A stretch of 61,794 bases of DNA from Bacteroidota bacterium (GTDB lineage Bacteria > Bacteroidota > Ignavibacteria > UBA10030 > SZUA-254). The notes under the pieces are model-generated. The model ran no database searches, was not told where the DNA came from, and saw only the letters and a list, made by a program, of their open reading frames with translations. Each line of letters begins with the position of its first letter. Position 1 is the first letter of the stretch. The position numbers and the translations under genes were made by a program. Positions 7,640 to 49,362 of this stretch are shown in pieces. The DNA lies in NCBI GenBank assembly GCA_030019075.1, contig JASEHD010000002.1, forward strand, positions 1-61,794, written 5' to 3'.

Positions 7640-8773
7640 TTAATTTTTCACGAACATTTTTCCGGGCAATTGTTTAACTAACCCTTTGAATTCTAAACTA
7701 AGTAGATTAACGAGAACATCAGATGTTGTTAATATTGCCGCCTCAGCAATCGAATCAATGTGGGAAGGATTTTCTGTGAGTACATCATAAATCGATCGTT
7801 CAAATAGAGTGAGAGATGGAAGTTGTTTTATTTCATCATGGTCTTTGGGTTTTATGAGGGGTTTTAGCTTTGTTGAAAGCTCTTCTAATATATCATCAAT
7901 GCTCTCTATTAATTTTGCACGCCCTTCTTTGATAAGTAAATGGCACCCGCGACTACGCTTCGAATTAACCAATCCGGGCAATGCAAATACTTCCCTGTTC
8001 TGATCTAATGCGGTATTGGCTGTAATCATTGCACCGCCATTTATATCGGTTTCGATAATTACCGTACCAAGAGATAATCCACTGATAATACGATTGCGAC
8101 GAGGGAAATTAACTGCATCGGGTTTGGCACCCATTTCATATTCACTGATAACAGCCCCACAACCGACAATTCGCTCGAATAAATTTTTATTCTCTGGAGG
8201 ATAAATAACATCCAGCCCTGATCCGATGACAGACAATGTTCGCCCGTCTGTTTTAATTGCCGCATGGTGTGCCACGGTATCGATACCGCGAGCCAAACCA
8301 CTCACGATGGTTATCCCAAGTACTGCTAATTCCTGACTTATTTTTTCTGTCATACGGACACCGTAATCGGATGGAGTGCGCGTCCCAACAATTGCAATTG
8401 CATACATATCTTTATCTGTGAACTCTCCCCGAACAAAAAGGAAAGGGGGTGAATCATAAATTTTCTTTAAGTTTTCAGGATATTGTTTATCCAAAAATGT
8501 TATAACTTTTCCCTCAACCTTATTCACCTTCGAAAGCTGCCGTTCAGCATATCTCTTTGCTTCACTATGCTTTTGACTTCTTACGAAATGAACAATCGTT
8601 GAAGCGAGTTTCCGACTAAATCCTTCCACTATCGCTATTTCCCTTATTGATGCAGTAAGTACTTCGTCGGTATTACCAAAATGCGATATGAGCATCCGCA
8701 ATCGATTTGAACCGATTCCAGGAATCTGAGACAATGTAAGAAGATCAAAAACAGAAATCACTTTTTCCCCCAT
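7640..8773 (-). CDS. dprA: DNA-processing protein DprA/Smf
   Basis: 377 aa. Rossmann-like core with GLARGIDTVAHHAAI and FPRRNRIISGLS, plus a C-terminal winged-helix-like tail. Confidence 0.88.
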   Translation of the reverse strand: MGEKVISVFDLLTLSQIPGIGSNRLRMLISHFGNTDEVLTASIREIAIVEGFSRKLASTIVHFVRSQKHSEAKRYAERQLSKVNKVEGKVITFLDKQYPENLKKIYDSPPFLFVRGEFTDKDMYAIAIVGTRTPSDYGVRMTEKISQELAVLGITIVSGLARGIDTVAHHAAIKTDGRTLSVIGSGLDVIYPPENKNLFERIVGCGAVISEYEMGAKPDAVNFPRRNRIISGLSLGTVIIETDINGGAMITANTALDQNREVFALPGLVNSKRSRGCHLLIKEGRAKLIESIDDILEELSTKLKPLIKPKDHDEIKQLPSLTLFERSIYDVLTENPSHIDSIAEAAILTTSDVLVNLLSLEFKGLVKQLPGKMFVKN

Positions 8774-8784
8774 GTTATCTCATA

Positions 8785-9060
8785 TCACTCAATTTTTACA
8801 TCAATTCCATCAACCACCGCAACAATCACTGAATGCACAGGTGCTTTTTTATCTTTGAGTACCTGCGCCGCACTCTGCCCTTCCTGAACAACGAGAACTG
8901 TGTCACCAACACCTGCATCTACCGAGTCGAGCGCCAACAAATCCCTCCCAATCAGATTTCCTTCAAGGTCAATCGGCTGTACAATCAGTATTTTATGCGG
9001 CTTTAAATGCTCATTCTTCTGTGTCGCAACGATAGTTCCAATAACTTTACTTAGTATCAT
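8785..9060 (-). CDS. EutN/CcmL-family bacterial microcompartment vertex protein (orphan)
   Basis: 91 aa. The sequence MILSKVIGTIVATQKNEHLKPHKILIVQPIDLEG...GDTVLVVQEGQSA follows the EutN/CcmL pattern. Confidence 0.72.
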   Translation of the reverse strand: MILSKVIGTIVATQKNEHLKPHKILIVQPIDLEGNLIGRDLLALDSVDAGVGDTVLVVQEGQSAAQVLKDKKAPVHSVIVAVVDGIDVKIE

Positions 9061-9069
9061 ATCATTATA

Positions 9070-10473
9070 TTAAAAATGTTTTTTGAATTGTTCGACGAGT
9101 TGTTTTGCCCGATCCATTGTTTGTGCCTCAGCAATAATACGGATAATCGGCTCAGTGTTCGACTTCCTCAGATGTACCCAAGAATCTTCAAAATCAATTT
9201 TTAAACCATCCTCAGTGTTGATGATCCCTGCTGATTCATATTTTCGTTGAATCGTTTCGAATGCTCGATCTATATCCTTCCTATGTCCGCCTGAGGTGGA
9301 TTCAAATTTTGATTTGACAATTGAATACTTTGGCAGTGACTCTTTAAATTCGGAAATTGTTCCTTGATATTCCGCAAGCTGTTGAAGGATCAATCCGATA
9401 CCAACAATTGCATCACGGGTAAAGTGAACATCAGGGAGAATAACTCCTCCGCTTCCCTCTCCACCTACAATCGCACCGACCTCTTTCATTTTCTGGGCAA
9501 CGTTTATTTCACCAACTGGTGTACGGATAACTTCAGTACCATACGATTTTGCTATAACATCGATTGCACGGGTGGTGGAGAGATTTACAACAACGTTTTG
9601 AGATTTGGGATGCTTGCCCGCCGAAGGCGGGTGAAGGATTTGGGATTTGGAATTTTGTTTTGAGAGTATGAATTTTACGACTGACGTGATGGTATATTCC
9701 TCACCGAATGGTTCGCCTTTTTCTGTGATTAAAACAAGTCGGTCAACGTCGGGGTCAACGGCAATTCCTAAATCTGCTTTTACATTTTTCACACACTTAC
9801 ATAATTCAACAAGATTTTCTGGAATTGGTTCAGGATTTCGAGTAAAGATTCCGCTTACTTCACAGTTTAGTTCTATGACTTCGCATCCTAAATCACGAAG
9901 CATCTTTGGAACGATATTACCACCAGATGCGTTGATGCAATCCACAACAATTTTAAATTTTCGATTTTTAATTTGTTCAATGTTAATATAAGGTAAACTC
10001 AGAACAGCGCCGATATGCTGCTGCATGAACGATTCGTCTGTAATATGTCGCCCGATTTTATCCCATGCAGCATAATTAAATTTTTGCCCTTCTGCAATAT
10101 TCCAGAGCTTTTGATTCTCCTCAGCATTTAGGAACATACCCGTCTGTGCGATAAATTTCAAGCCATTCCACTGGATTGGGTTATGACTTGCAGTAATAGC
10201 TATACCTCCAGCGGCTACAAGTTTTTCTACTGCAAGTGCAACTGTTGGAGTTGGTACAATCCCTAAATCGACCACATCGCAGCCTATCGAAAGGAATGTT
10301 GAAGACACGAGATTACTAATAATTCTTCCAGTAACTCGCCCATCTTGCCCGATCACAACTTTTCCATGATTGCAGAATTGTGCAAAAGCTGATGAATACT
10401 TCACAATTACATCAGGAGTGAGACTTTCACCCACGATGCCGCGGATACCTGATATGCTAAATATTAAAGACAT
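9070..10473 (-). CDS. glmM: phosphoglucosamine mutase (Bacteroidetes-type alpha-D-phosphohexomutase)
   Basis: 467 aa. N-terminus SISGIRGIVGESLTP, phosphoserine loop TASHNP, metal loop DPDVDR and sugar loop GEGSGG. Confidence 0.8.
   Translation of the reverse strand: MSLIFSISGIRGIVGESLTPDVIVKYSSAFAQFCNHGKVVIGQDGRVTGRIISNLVSSTFLSIGCDVVDLGIVPTPTVALAVEKLVAAGGIAITASHNPIQWNGLKFIAQTGMFLNAEENQKLWNIAEGQKFNYAAWDKIGRHITDESFMQQHIGAVLSLPYINIEQIKNRKFKIVVDCINASGGNIVPKMLRDLGCEVIELNCEVSGIFTRNPEPIPENLVELCKCVKNVKADLGIAVDPDVDRLVLITEKGEPFGEEYTITSVVKFILSKQNSKSQILHPPSAGKHPKSQNVVVNLSTTRAIDVIAKSYGTEVIRTPVGEINVAQKMKEVGAIVGGEGSGGVILPDVHFTRDAIVGIGLILQQLAEYQGTISEFKESLPKYSIVKSKFESTSGGHRKDIDRAFETIQRKYESAGIINTEDGLKIDFEDSWVHLRKSNTEPIIRIIAEAQTMDRAKQLVEQFKKHF
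9596..9665. repeat. palindrome plus GATTTGG heptamer words lying in-frame inside glmM
   Basis: GC hairpin CCCGCC-GAA-GGCGGG (9617..9631). It is flanked by GATTTGG words at 9602..9608, 9637..9643 and 9644..9650. The segment encodes SKSQILHPPSAGKHPKSQN. Confidence 0.7.
10397..10455. repeat. direct repeat copy 1 (functional glmM 5' end)
   Basis: The 59 nt are identical to 11097..11155 at all but 3 positions. The two copies lie exactly 700 bp apart. Confidence 0.9.
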
Positions 10474-10630: not shown

Positions 10631-10843
10631 ATGGGAAAAGTAAAAGAGCCAGCATCCACATACATTGTGGATAAGGAAGGCAAGAAAACAGCCGTTATTC
10701 TTCCTATCGAAAAATATGAAGAGTTATTAGAAGACTTGGAAGATTTGGCAGTGATTGCTTCTCGAAAGACTGAACCAACATATGACTGGGAAGAACTAAA
10801 AAATAAATTGAAAAGGGATGGGATCCTTTCTGATAAAATATAG
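10631..10843 (+). CDS. type II antitoxin (RelB/Phd-like)
   Basis: 70 aa with an acidic C-terminal half (EKYEELLEDLEDLAVIASRK). It overlaps the downstream RelE-like toxin gene. Confidence 0.7.
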   Translation: MGKVKEPASTYIVDKEGKKTAVILPIEKYEELLEDLEDLAVIASRKTEPTYDWEELKNKLKRDGILSDKI

Positions 10844-11081
10844 GGCTTCGTTTGAAAAGGAGTTTCGGAGCATCCCAAAAGAGTTTACCGATGCTGTTGC
10901 AGTTCGCATAGATTCTCTTTCTCAAAATCCGTTTCCTGTCGGATGTAAGAAACTTACCAATGAAGAATTTTATCGAATTCGAGTTGGCAATTATCGGATT
11001 GTCTATTCGGTCGATTCAAACAGCAAGGTGATAACGATAGAAAGGATCAAACATCGAAAAGATGTGTACAGAAAACTTTGA
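10818..11081 (+). CDS. type II toxin, RelE/ParE family
   Basis: 87 aa. The sequence YRIRVGNYRIVYSVDSNSKVITIERIKHRKDVY is the classic RelE/StbE C-terminal pattern. Confidence 0.85.
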   Translation: MGSFLIKYRASFEKEFRSIPKEFTDAVAVRIDSLSQNPFPVGCKKLTNEEFYRIRVGNYRIVYSVDSNSKVITIERIKHRKDVYRKL

Positions 11082-16017: not shown

Positions 16018-16031
16018 CTAATAACCAACAT

Positions 16032-16053
16032 CTAACATCTAATATCTCACATC
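16032..16053. repeat. right inverted arm flanking the four-helix-bundle gene
   Basis: CTAACATCTAATATCTCACATC is the reverse-complement partner of 15533..15554. Confidence 0.7.
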
Positions 16054-26020: not shown

Positions 26021-27736
26021 ATGAGAATGAAATATTCTACGCTTATCAATGCTATGAAATCCCTTTCTTTTGTTCTGACATTGAGCTTATTTGTTATGCT
26101 TAGTGTACAAGATTACTGTTATCCACAGTGGTCACATGTTGGTCTAACAAACTCCGTGTATACACTTAAAAAACAAAAGAACACTTTACTTGCAGGTGCG
26201 GGTTTTGTATATCGTTCCACTGATTACGGAACTCACTGGGGCACACTTGGAAATACAAACATTGTTGGAGTTTCCACTATTGAGACGATTGATGATACTA
26301 TTCTTGTGGGAGGAAATTGGGATTGCATTTTTTGCAATGATCCGTTAACGGCAGTATCCCGTTCTAATGATAATGGAAATACTTGGACGACAGTTCTATC
26401 AGCATATTATGGTGTTCAATCAATTCTAAAAAGTAATAGATACATTTTCACAAATCCTGATGGAATGCTTTATCGTTCTGATGATGGGGGAGTCAGCTGG
26501 AATCGTGTTCCATCTGATTCATTATTTGGGGGGCGAATCTATTTATCATATGAAGATGACAGAACCCTTTACTTGTCTAGTGAAAATCAACTGTTCTACA
26601 CTACCGATTACGGTGAAACATGGAGTTTAATGACAAATGGTTGGGGAAACGCCTACGTCTATGAGCTTGTCAAGAGGGATTCGTTGATCTTCACAGGTAC
26701 GAGTTATGGAGTGTACCGTTCTACAAATCACGGAGTGAACTGGGAAAAATTTAGCCCGGGAAATAACATTATTTTTGCTCTGCTCCTTTTGGGTGACAAT
26801 CTCTTCGCTGTCTGGAGTCACTCGATTTACATGACGAAAATTGTTTCTCAGGACTGGAATAATGTAAGTACCGGATTAACTCTCCCAGATTATCCGACTA
26901 TCAATACACTCGTATATAGCGGTCAATATCTTTTCGCCGGAACAAATTACGGAGTCTGGCGGCGACCATTATCAGAGATGATGCTTCTAGAGGATATAAA
27001 GGTTAAAAGAGGTTGGAATATGATTTCGCTACCGGCTATAACCACCGACGTTAGAAAAACCGATTTGTTTCCTACGGCAACATCGCACGCATTTTCCTAT
27101 AACGGTTCTACTTATATCCGGCATGATACGCTTCAAAAAGGTATCGGATATTGGATGAAGTTCAGCAGCGATCAGACAATATCAATCATTGGTTCAAAAA
27201 TAAATATAGATACGATTAATGTACTACCTGGATGGAATATGATTGGATCGATTAGTACTCCAGTTCCGGTTGGATCTACTACTTTCATCCCACATGACAT
27301 TCAGGTAAGTAAATTTTTCAAATACGACGGATCATACGTTCCTGCTGATACTCTTATGCCGGGGAAAAGTTACTGGATAAAAGTTAATCAGGTTGGTAAA
27401 TTGATTCTTTCGCCTTCTGGTTCTGCATCTTCATCAAATCTAATCAAAATTGTAAAAGGTGGAGAGATGCCGCCACCACCGCCGGATGGTGAAATCTCAA
27501 ATCCCAAATCCCAAATCCCAAATAAATTTGCTTTAGAGCAGAATTATCCGAACCCTTTTAATCCAATAACCGTTATTCGTTATTCGTTACCTGTTAATAG
27601 TTGGGTGACGTTGAAAGTTCATAACGTGCTTGGGCAAGAAGTCGTAATGCTGGTTGATGAGTTTCAGGATGCAGGATACAAATCGGTTGAGTGGATGGGT
27701 CGGGCTTACCAAGTGGAGTGTATATGTACAAATTAA
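26021..27736 (+). CDS. BNR/Asp-box beta-propeller protein with frameshifted T9SS CTD
   Basis: Asp-box repeats [36 protein letters not shown] and STNHGVNWE. The CTD starts at [11 protein letters not shown] but the frame breaks after KSVEW. Confidence 0.8.
27492..27526 (+). repeat. AAATCCC heptamer tandem array inside a CDS
   Basis: AAATCTC AAATCCC AAATCCC AAATCCC AAATAAA encodes [11 protein letters not shown]. The periodic word is the same as in the glmM insert. Confidence 0.85.
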
Positions 27737-48345: not shown

Positions 48346-49362
48346 TCATATTGATAGATTAGGAATAGCATTCAGTGAAAAATCAGAAGACTGCCCTGCT
48401 ATAATTTTCATCCATCCTAACTGTGCAATCATTGCTCCGTTATCGGTACAGTATCGGAATTCCGGAATGAATAAACGAAATCCATTCTCGTCGGCACAAG
48501 CTTGCAGCCTTTTACGAAGCTCTGAGTTTGCAGAAACACCTCCGGCTATTGTAACATTCCTGACTTTCATATTCTTAGCAGCTCGTAGTGTTTTTTCCAC
48601 CAGAACATCAACAACAGACGCTTGGAAACTTGCACAAATATCGGCTAACAATTGATTTGAGATATGAGATATGTGATATGAGTAGTCCGGGGTATGATCT
48701 TTCAGCCAGTAAAGAACAGAAGTTTTTATTCCGCTGAAGCTGAAATCATAACTATCTGGCTCAAGAAATGTGCGTGGGAATTTTATAAAATTAGGATTAC
48801 CATCCTTCGCCAATTTGTCGATTATTGGACCACCCGGAAATCCAAGCCCTAACATTTTTGCAACTTTATCATACGCTTCGCCTGCCGCATCATCAAGTGT
48901 CTCCCCAAGCAGTTGATGGTGGAGAGCTTTTTGTACATATATTAATTGCGTATGCCCACCAGATACAGTTAGACAAATAAAAGGATAATCGGGTTTTGGC
49001 TCATCAATGAAATTTGAATACATATGGGCTTCCATATGATTGATACCCACGAAAGGTATTTTCAAACCGTATGCAAGCGCCTTAGCGAAACTCAATCCGA
49101 CTAAAAGTGCACCCATGAGACCGGGTCCATACGTTACTGCAACTCCTTCAAGCTGCTGTTTCTTGATACCTGCGACAACCAGAGCTTCTTTGACAACAGG
49201 ACCAATCAAACGTTGATGTGCACGTGAAGCCAACTCAGGCACAACACCGCCATATTTTTGATGGATAAGCTGTGAAGAAATTATATTCGATAAAACCTTA
49301 CCATCATCGAGTACAGCAGCCGAAGTTTCATCACAAGATGTTTCGATTCCGAGAATATACAT
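48346..49362 (-). CDS. tsaD: tRNA N6-adenosine threonylcarbamoyltransferase
   Basis: 338 aa with GIETSCDETSAAV, HMEAHM and GGVSANSELR. Confidence 0.93.
   Translation of the reverse strand: MYILGIETSCDETSAAVLDDGKVLSNIISSQLIHQKYGGVVPELASRAHQRLIGPVVKEALVVAGIKKQQLEGVAVTYGPGLMGALLVGLSFAKALAYGLKIPFVGINHMEAHMYSNFIDEPKPDYPFICLTVSGGHTQLIYVQKALHHQLLGETLDDAAGEAYDKVAKMLGLGFPGGPIIDKLAKDGNPNFIKFPRTFLEPDSYDFSFSGIKTSVLYWLKDHTPDYSYHISHISNQLLADICASFQASVVDVLVEKTLRAAKNMKVRNVTIAGGVSANSELRKRLQACADENGFRLFIPEFRYCTDNGAMIAQLGWMKIIAGQSSDFSLNAIPNLSI
48654..48681. repeat. GATATGA-type heptamer tandem array inside tsaD
   Basis: GATTTGA GATATGA GATATGT GATATGA on the plus strand encodes YSYHISHISNQ on the coding strand. 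Confidence 0.85.

Follow-up and report, generated by a model that had tools for sequence, protein, structure and literature searches.

An Ignavibacteria-type glmM gene carries in frame a 24-nt hairpin repeat that is dispersed mostly between genes

We consider here a stretch of 61,794 nucleotides (the window; contig JASEHD010000002.1 of assembly GCA_030019075.1, a Bacteroidota bacterium of the class Ignavibacteria), in which the gene glmM for phosphoglucosamine mutase contains a palindrome surrounded by heptamer repeats. The core of this segment is a 24-nt hairpin sequence, which we name element E and which recurs in many other genomes. E is a discrete multi-copy repeat, mostly intergenic and non-coding, and its presence is polymorphic (gained or lost) between close relatives; this much is established. 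We believe that E is probably a non-autonomous dispersed hairpin repeat, which entered a heptamer array in a loop of GlmM and is carried there as a translated passenger. The features concerned are listed below; in what follows, labels in L denote analysed loci or contigs, and labels in P denote proteins.

9070..10473, minus strand: archaeal-type phosphoglucosamine mutase GlmM, 467 aa, full length, Pfam PGM_PMM_I-IV, all four phosphohexomutase domains
9595..9657, minus strand: loop-coding segment, Q273-N293, 21 aa in frame, equal to QNSKSQILHPPSAGKHPKSQN; heptamer units and hairpin
9612..9635, minus strand: element E, encoding (L)HPPSAGK, an exact match to the dispersed 24-mer
9617-9631: hairpin core, 6-bp G+C stem (9617-9622/9626-9631) with a 3-nt loop (9623-9625), CCCGCC-GAA-GGCGGG on the plus strand
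9597..9610, minus strand: two heptamer units on the gene-distal side of E, TCCCAAA TCTCAAA on the coding strand (TTTGAGA TTTGGGA on the plus strand)
9637..9657, minus strand: two to three heptamer units on the gene-proximal side of E, GATTTGG GATTTGG AATTTTG on the plus strand

On the coding (minus) strand, E reads TTCACCCGCC-TTC-GGCGGGCAAGC. The plus strand from 9597 reads TTTGAGA TTTGGGA t GCTTGCCCGCC GAA GGCGGGTGAA g GATTTGG GATTTGG AATTTTG, with E between the two lower-case letters; the word GATTTGG falls at 9602-9608, 9637-9643 and 9644-9650. Set against a continuous CCAAATC array, E takes the place of the CAA of one unit (C-CAA-ATC). A G+C stem of 6 bp and the conserved flanks TTCA and CAAGC make up its 21 fixed bases; the 3-nt loop is free. 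The hairpin is the sole perfect 6-bp GC-rich stem with a 3-nt loop across the window; it folds as single-stranded DNA with -7.4 kcal/mol (z = -3.1), and the structure of the mRNA context around it, taken as a whole, is unremarkable (z = -0.5). An earlier note on this DNA had reported the hairpin, the flanking GATTTGG heptamers and their in-frame translation inside glmM, all of which are present as described (residues 273-293 of the open reading frame (ORF), frame kept). It had taken them for a single heptamer-flanked unit of about 63-70 nt, and this part has to be given up: the dispersed unit is 24 nt long, and heptamers also occur elsewhere without the hairpin. The segment is a composite, namely, a 24-nt hairpin element within a heptamer array.

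The 21 fixed bases of E were sought by an exact scan of one genome per GTDB species (596 Gb), which gave matches in 39 genome stretches against about 0.27 expected (our own arithmetic, assuming equal base use). In the JGI metagenomes at least 120 stretches contain E, and in IMG/VR one does. The richest contigs belong to low-G+C Ignavibacteria, where E lies within intergenic NTTTCAC heptamer arrays with copy-to-copy spacings of 26, 33, 40, 47 and 54 nt, i.e., 26 + 7k; one of them, L215, has 8 copies in 12.8 kb and is assigned to this group as a low-G+C contig with one protein annotated in an Ignavibacteria metagenome-assembled genome (MAG). Among the 82 low-G+C copies with unique context, 68 (83%) are outside long ORFs and 13 lie within ORFs in the sense orientation; the single copy that appeared antisense is really upstream of the start of cas1. 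The suggestion of the earlier note that the segment is organised as an intergenic repeat with other copies is borne out: related Ignavibacteria contain the 24-mer in dispersed copies, the majority of them intergenic. In the loci analysed, 133 copies are perfect vs 14 with 1-4 mismatches, a ratio biased by ascertainment, though neighbouring copies were counted. The loop triplet varies with the genome (AAA/ATA in low-G+C contigs, TCA/AGA/TCC in high-G+C ones), while the stem and flanks are fixed.

The identical 24-mer, its loop aside, is found in Ignavibacteria, Verrucomicrobiota and Planctomycetota, in DNA of 32% to 70% G+C. In Verrucomicrobia it occupies the apex of hairpins of repetitive extragenic palindromes (REP) of the GTAG type, and in Planctomycetota it forms part of a longer repeat. 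The occurrences in these three groups are multi-copy or structured, and hence we treat them as real. Such a distribution across phyla is surprising; identity of the 24 nt over this range of composition calls either for a shared mobilising or recognition system or for very efficient horizontal spread.

GlmM of the window passes the equivalog cutoff of TIGR03990 (Arch_GlmM; 527 bits vs 439), and its invariant catalytic residues and motifs are all intact. Protein P0001 of an NCBI MAG is identical to it, and the sequence is known from a single contig. The loop lies in domain III between the first helix (ending ..KFILSK) and the first strand (VVVNL). An alignment of the 120 closest Ignavibacteria-type orthologues shows the loop to be hypervariable, from about 6 to 50 aa of unrelated low-complexity sequence; the solved phosphohexomutase structures are about 16 residues shorter at this position, and in distant members of the family only 4-6 residues separate the helix from the strand VVxNLSTT. 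Compared with the orthologues, the segment is an insertion, as had been supposed. The AlphaFold model of the protein (predicted local distance difference test score, pLDDT, 90.7; predicted template modelling score, pTM, 0.91) has an extended helix 258-280, a coil 281-292 in which the block has pLDDT 54, and a strand 293-297. The model places the insert in the helix extension and the low-confidence coil, which would be a tolerated surface loop, in line with the earlier expectation of a surface location.

Several of the orthologue loops are heptamer arrays at the DNA level: a perfect (AAATCCG)4 in L046, units of the CTCACCA type in L001, L002, L133 and L134, GAGACAG in L045, and CTCATTA/TTCATCA/AATCACC in L044. 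None of the orthologues shares the loop peptide of the window; homologous peptides at this position in many taxa, without palindromic structure in the DNA, were what the earlier note named as evidence against its reading. The same GlmM loop contains E in L001/P0002, L002/P0015 and L005 as well (TTCACCCGCC-NNN-GGCGGGCAAGC), where it is read as FTRxRRAS and has heptamers of the CTCACCA type on its flanks. In P0002 and P0015, whose identity to GlmM of the window outside the loop is 83% and 67%, respectively, the triplets are GCA and AGA, the peptides are FTRRRRAS and FTRQRRAS, and the flanks are CTCACCA, not CCAAATC. Since the DNA of E is read in another frame by these GlmM loops, conservation at the protein level is ruled out. 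One could still suppose that the loop was ancestral in this clade of GlmM and belongs to the protein, with the palindrome incidental; indeed, every Ignavibacteria-type orthologue has some extra residues there. Considering the unshared peptide, the change of frame, the range of loop lengths, the loops that are perfect heptamer arrays and the shortness of the loop in distant representatives, we hold this to be almost certainly wrong.

Other palindromic inserts were observed in this loop. In L045:3824-3880 (P0118) it contains the reversed half-site of E, GCTTGCCCGCC, followed by 32 nt and GGCGGG, amid the GAGACAG heptamers; in another orthologue, P0302, it contains a longer G+C-rich palindromic insert with the peptide ..LPARLAPASSERAGKAG... 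Given these inserts, the GlmM loop appears to be a recurrent landing site.

The other genes with E, assigned by Pfam or alignment, are those for TrpRS, MutS, MiaA, a DeoC/LacD aldolase, a XerC/D-like recombinase, IspE, asparaginase and an MsbA-like ABC exporter. The element is read in three sense frames, giving LHPPxAGK, FTRxRRAS or SPAxGGQA; the insert is YG[SPASGGQA]FKIPQP in TrpRS and FSYGD[SPAVGGQ]AAAL in the MsbA-like ABC protein of L013 (Verrucomicrobia). All genic copies are in the sense orientation, while intergenic E occurs in both orientations (16 as -E- vs 6 as +E+). Read in the sense direction, E contains no fixed stop in any frame: one arises only with certain loop triplets, and then in just two frames out of three. 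In the reverse direction, E has a TGA in one frame, and heptamers that contain TCA have it in all frames. These reverse-strand stops, together with purifying selection for multiples of three, would account for much of the sense bias in genes. We infer that E in GlmM is a translated passenger in a disordered loop and does nothing for the enzyme.

It could be argued that the hairpin is a selected cis-acting signal, either an mRNA structure (affecting translation, pausing or decay) or a protein binding site: the stem and flanks are exact with the loop free, the genic copies are all sense, and L013 and L034 agree, in their ABC genes, at seven synonymous third positions within E and differ in the flanking codons. 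We find this improbable. Close relatives lack E, the host genes are unrelated, most copies are intergenic in either orientation, no Rfam family matches, the mRNA context is unremarkable as noted above, and the sense bias is partly due to the TGA stops on the reverse strand. A reading as a programmed -1 frameshift site (CCCAAAT, a 6-nt spacer and the hairpin) fails too: the phase is wrong for X XXY YYZ, and the heptamers of the other hosts are non-slippery.

Gain and loss can be followed between relatives. The GlmM proteins of L005, with E, and P0007/L044, without it, are 96.4% identical, and in a neighbour-joining tree of GlmM with the loop masked the bearers of E fall into three clades, each with sisters that lack it (e.g., P0003 is the sister of P0002). 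The ABC gene of L013 has E, whereas L135 and L136, 92-93% identical, and all of the other 119 orthologues listed do not; L034, a more distant orthologue, has it at the very same nucleotide as L013 with a different loop. Target duplication was not found in the empty/filled pairs of glmM and the ABC gene. In genes E takes the place of CAN, namely, CAT (L044), CAC/CAA (L133) or CAA (L135/L136 and the unit of the window), and the replacement of CAN by 24 nt gives a net gain of 21 nt, i.e., 7 codons or 3 heptamers. In the NTTTCAC arrays the gain is a clean 19 nt after TTCAC, and in L186 the left pentanucleotide is CTCAC, from the host array. In L033 the gain is 18 nt after a pre-existing CTCACC, with 6 nt replaced. 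The target in the ABC gene, GGCG-ACAA-CGCC, and the REP targets are themselves small hairpins, the loop of which is replaced by E; loop-nested inserts are present in L045, L047 and L033.

The last of these loci has further features. L033:1407-5042 contains a 195-nt repeat, of which three young copies have E and a fourth, diverged copy does not; the repeat is the 3' end of ORFs ending in ..LYGLTEEEIKIVE. The young copies also nest a second hairpin, TTTACCCGCC[44 nt]GGCGGGCTTTAC, which is flanked by a TTTAC direct repeat and adds a stop codon.

These data are consistent with the following course of events. E would have its home in the intergenic period-7 tandem arrays of Ignavibacteria; the surface loop in domain III of GlmM would in this lineage have been built from a short heptamer array, and E would have entered it, displacing the 3 nt CAA of one CCAAATC unit. 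Since the gain is 21 nt and the sense strand has no fixed stop, glmM would have stayed open, with E translated as LHPPSAGK. As to the mechanism, E may be mobilised in trans as a single-stranded DNA (ssDNA) hairpin by a structure-specific enzyme, the best candidate being of the HUH/Y1 type (a REP-associated tyrosine transposase, RAYT, or an IS200-like one), with YTCAC-rich heptamer arrays and apical loops of other hairpins as preferred targets. We propose this tentatively; it is suggested by the fixed stem and flanks with a free loop, by the absence of duplication and by the preferred sites, YTCAC arrays and the apices of hairpins. Equally tentative is the broader proposal that E is an actively mobile 24-nt element that crosses phyla: conserved trans-acting machinery might act on ssDNA or RNA hairpins, target heptamer arrays and hairpin apices, recurrently use the same nucleotide positions (as in the two Verrucomicrobia ABC genes) and so remodel loops of essential proteins (GlmM, TrpRS, MutS, MiaA, MsbA-like) and possibly structured RNAs (RNase P RNA).

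The same mini hairpin repeat could have spread without any dedicated enzyme, i.e., passively, by slippage, unequal exchange, gene conversion and template-switching at microhomologies, with ordinary horizontal transfer between phyla. The replaced target length varies (3, 5 or 6 nt), target-site duplication is lacking, TTCAC at the 5' end of E is similar to the heptamers of its hosts (NTTTCAC, CTCACCA and ATTCACC), independent CTCACCA arrays (L001, L002, L019-L021) have E inserted in the same phase, and tandem amplification proceeds with periods of 26 + 7k and 28 nt. Nevertheless, E is also present at sites without an array or evident homology (the ABC gene, TrpRS, MutS, REP loops), the same nucleotide of the ABC gene was hit in L013 and L034 while the 119 other orthologues listed lack E, and phyla of very different G+C agree in all 21 fixed bases. 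We regard passive spread as rather unlikely, though it is the main rival.

Several points weigh against a mobile dispersed repeat. A second copy of E was not found in the 61.8-kb window, even with 6 mismatches allowed; exact-match scanning favours perfect copies; and half-site scans of viral contigs show that CCCGCC/GGCGGG hairpins matching E in one flank are frequent, the other flank being random, so we treat the singletons in the candidate phyla radiation (CPR), Actinomycetes and Paenibacillus as possibly due to chance. A mobilising gene was not identified, the loci of E not having been screened for PF01797. The target sequence is not fixed, and the net gain varies (21 nt in genes, 19 in arrays, 18 in L033), so that microhomology-driven copying fits at least as well as enzymatic transposition; the TTCAC end imported in the ABC gene argues against insertion 3' of a pentanucleotide in the style of IS200/IS605. 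Finally, the robust hits are all from MAGs or metagenomes, with none in a cultured Ignavibacteria isolate.

This last circumstance, and the single contig that is the source of GlmM of the window, might raise the suspicion of an artefact of assembly or sequencing in metagenome-derived genomes. We consider such an artefact highly improbable: judging by their names, the contigs stem from unrelated projects and from assemblies of SPAdes (NODE_), MEGAHIT (k127_/k141_), JGI and Logan origin, E is always in frame in genes, diverged genes have it at orthologous positions with differing loop triplets, decayed copies stand beside perfect ones, and the loop composition tracks the G+C of the genome.

Among the described kinds of repeats, the small dispersed repeats (SDR) of heterocyst-forming cyanobacteria are closest to E. 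Eight families of them, SDR1-8, are said to be 21-27 nt long with a predicted hairpin, to be often embedded in tandem heptamer repeats, and to be non-coding, with many dispersed copies, nested insertions and recent gain and loss; we know of no enzyme that mobilises them. E agrees in size, in its hairpin of -7.4 kcal/mol and in its well over 100 dispersed copies, and it is likewise embedded in heptamer arrays (CCAAATC, CTCACCA, NTTTCAC, ATTCACC), with nested inserts and recent gain and loss. It differs in sequence, which we take to be unrelated in that no cyanobacterial record is among the 39 hits (the SDR consensus was not compared), in its hosts (Ignavibacteria-type bacteria of the FCB group (Fibrobacterota, Chlorobiota, Bacteroidota), Verrucomicrobiota and Planctomycetota) and in the substantial minority of copies that lie in frame in essential genes. 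The SDR paper (Elhai et al. 2008) is cited in PMC5861425 and PMC3116915, and SDRs have not been found outside Nostocaceae (PMC5861425).

The earlier note likened the segment to the Rickettsia palindromic elements (RPE). These are about 100-150 bp long and form some ten families, each of which encodes its own conserved peptide; they are not known outside Rickettsia. They are palindromic repeats found in frame in housekeeping ORFs, the protein products of which tolerate them (PMC10969869). E is likewise tolerated in frame in unrelated housekeeping ORFs (GlmM, TrpRS, MutS, MiaA, MsbA-like ABC, IspE and others), and its copies are mostly intergenic; thus, the analogy of an in-frame palindromic repeat holds. 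Membership in an RPE family does not, with respect to size, peptide conservation and taxon: E has 24 nt (63 with the heptamers) and a 6-bp stem, which makes it about 6-fold smaller, it is read in three sense frames, and it is mainly intergenic and occurs in other phyla. E is not an RPE, and the resemblance is one of analogy only; the earlier reading was largely right in spirit, and the element should be filed as SDR-like.

REP/REPIN sequences are imperfect palindromes of 20-40 nt, mostly extragenic, multi-copy and species-specific, arranged in inverted doublets and mobilised by RAYT (TnpA-REP) HUH transposases. E shares with them the short, multi-copy palindrome and, presumably, mobility as a single-stranded hairpin; as to extragenic location, 83% of the low-G+C copies are outside long ORFs, and the copy of the window lies in a gene, as do about 17% of the rest. 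REP ends carry the tetranucleotide GTAG or CGTC (PMC3733652). E ends with TTCA../..AAGC (reverse complement GCTT..), with no GTAG or CGTC; where GTAG occurs, it belongs to the outer REP. E differs also in its direct tandem arrays and its identity across phyla. Miniature inverted-repeat transposable elements have terminal inverted repeats and a target-site duplication and are about 50-500 bp long; E, of 24 nt, has neither, and 3 nt were replaced in the glmM and ABC pairs and 6 nt in L033.

The IS200/IS605 type, including palindrome-associated transposable elements (PATE), resembles E in the lack of duplication and in that a 19-nt core always follows TTCAC (CTCAC in L186) in NTTTCAC arrays. Insertion after a fixed pentanucleotide holds in the NTTTCAC and CGTCTCA arrays and fails in the ABC gene, where TTCAC was imported. 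E differs in having one hairpin, not two ends, and in that the non-array sites lose 3 nt and import TTCAC. No TnpA was seen, the loci of E not having been screened for PF01797.

Other identities were tried and rejected. Rfam at E <= 10 yields only noise, which leaves no known RNA family. Spacings of 26-54 nt are too tight for CRISPR spacers, and cas1 of L216 is merely flanked by copies. An uptake sequence, a parS-like site and a terminator were rejected with no T-run, both intergenic orientations and close relatives lacking E; an intein or intron, with a segment of 63 nt and no ribozyme match. Half-site searches of the E loci for the ends of a longer transposon gave loop-expanded variants of 18-44 nt with no cargo.

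The heptamers of the window are a phenomenon of their own. GATTTGG as a bare word is not significantly enriched (19 occurrences vs 13.6 expected; 9 of 100 shuffles reach 19). Its tandem arrangement is significant: arrays with a period of 7 and 3 or more units number three in the window and none in the shuffles, and arrays with a period of 6 or 8 are absent. The three, all outside the glmM segment, are as follows.

27492..27523, plus strand: AAATCCC array of about 4.5 units, in frame in the ORF 26021..27736 for a BNR/sortilin-like secreted protein
48658..48680, minus strand: TGAGATA x3 (as read on the plus strand), in frame in tsaD, encoding YSYHISHIS (PF00814 TsaD, E = 5.6e-101)
16027..16047, no strand assigned: AACATCT x3, intergenic array

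The first of these is the recurrence of the heptamer in an unrelated gene that the earlier note had pointed out; it encodes the stretch just ahead of a weak match to a type IX secretion system (T9SS) sorting domain, and the hairpin is absent there. The in-frame array in tsaD means that heptamer arrays colonise essential genes of this genome. Gain or loss of one unit by slippage would frameshift tsaD. The non-coding strand at 9597-9657 and 27492-27523 reads GGGATTT, of the same G-tract type as the GGGNATC repeats. The latter, heptanucleotide repeats of Xanthomonas and Nostoc, form quadruplexes, and they and the short tandemly repeated repetitive (STRR) sequences of Calothrix and Nostoc are described as under-represented in coding regions (PMC4692102). 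The flanks of E are ordinary head-to-tail period-7 arrays of this type, with the C-rich strand as the coding strand; they differ in that the arrays of the window lie in frame in glmM, tsaD and the gene for the secreted protein. The GC skew of the window is too noisy for assigning the replication strand.

Some copies of E elsewhere have an unusual context. In seven high-G+C metagenome contigs (L153, L158, L170, L172, L191, L193, L198) E is always flanked as CCACAGAGA[E]AGAG(T/G)TCAC.GAG; the constant flanks suggest a composite repeat amplified in a high-G+C lineage. In the low-G+C contig L216 (60-196, 1166-1189, 2371-2394) six copies within 2.4 kb bracket cas1 (PF01867, E = 8e-77), at spacings of 33-47 nt, less than a CRISPR array would need. 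At L017:5122-5145 (a Vogelbacteria MAG) E lies between 16S rRNA and tRNA-Ile, flanked by the tRNA-like fragments GCGCGTGTAGCTCAG .. GTTAGGCGC, where ARAGORN calls no tRNA. At L018:95-118 (Saccharibacteria MAG, CAZXCD010000019.1) an exact E is inside a partial gene for bacterial RNase P RNA (RF00010, E = 2e-9) that runs on the opposite strand, in a variable region where the P10-P12 part of the model is unaligned; it could be an insertion of E into a structured RNA or a native hairpin that matches by chance. A location in 23S rRNA was rejected for this copy, as Rfam assigns the RNase P RNA gene. Unrelated to E is another hairpin repeat, ..ATATGT CGTCCC NAC GGGACG TTAAAATG.., at 95-nt and 191-nt intervals in L140:3571-3970, possibly a CRISPR array.

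The neighbourhood of glmM is that of its group: the order AMMECR1 - Memo .. glmM - EutN/CcmL-like - dprA - sigma-54 - hslV/hslU is common to Ignavibacteria-type contigs (7640-10473 in the window; L002, L003, L044, L046). A RelE/ParE-like ORF (10818..11081) is directly upstream of glmM in the window.

For annotation, LHPPxAGK, FTRxRRAS and SPAxGGQA should be read as repeat-derived inserts, not as functional motifs, and E and the hypervariable GlmM loop can be used as strain markers. E also offers a handle on how minimal elements move, a question standing since the SDRs of cyanobacteria; if it is indeed actively mobile, it would be among the smallest mobile DNAs known. The case presented here is a documented repeat invasion of an essential gene, in which heptamer arrays and a mini hairpin add residues without breaking enzymes, and it adds free-living bacteria of the FCB and PVC (Planctomycetota, Verrucomicrobiota, Chlamydiota) groups to a phenomenon described chiefly in Rickettsia.

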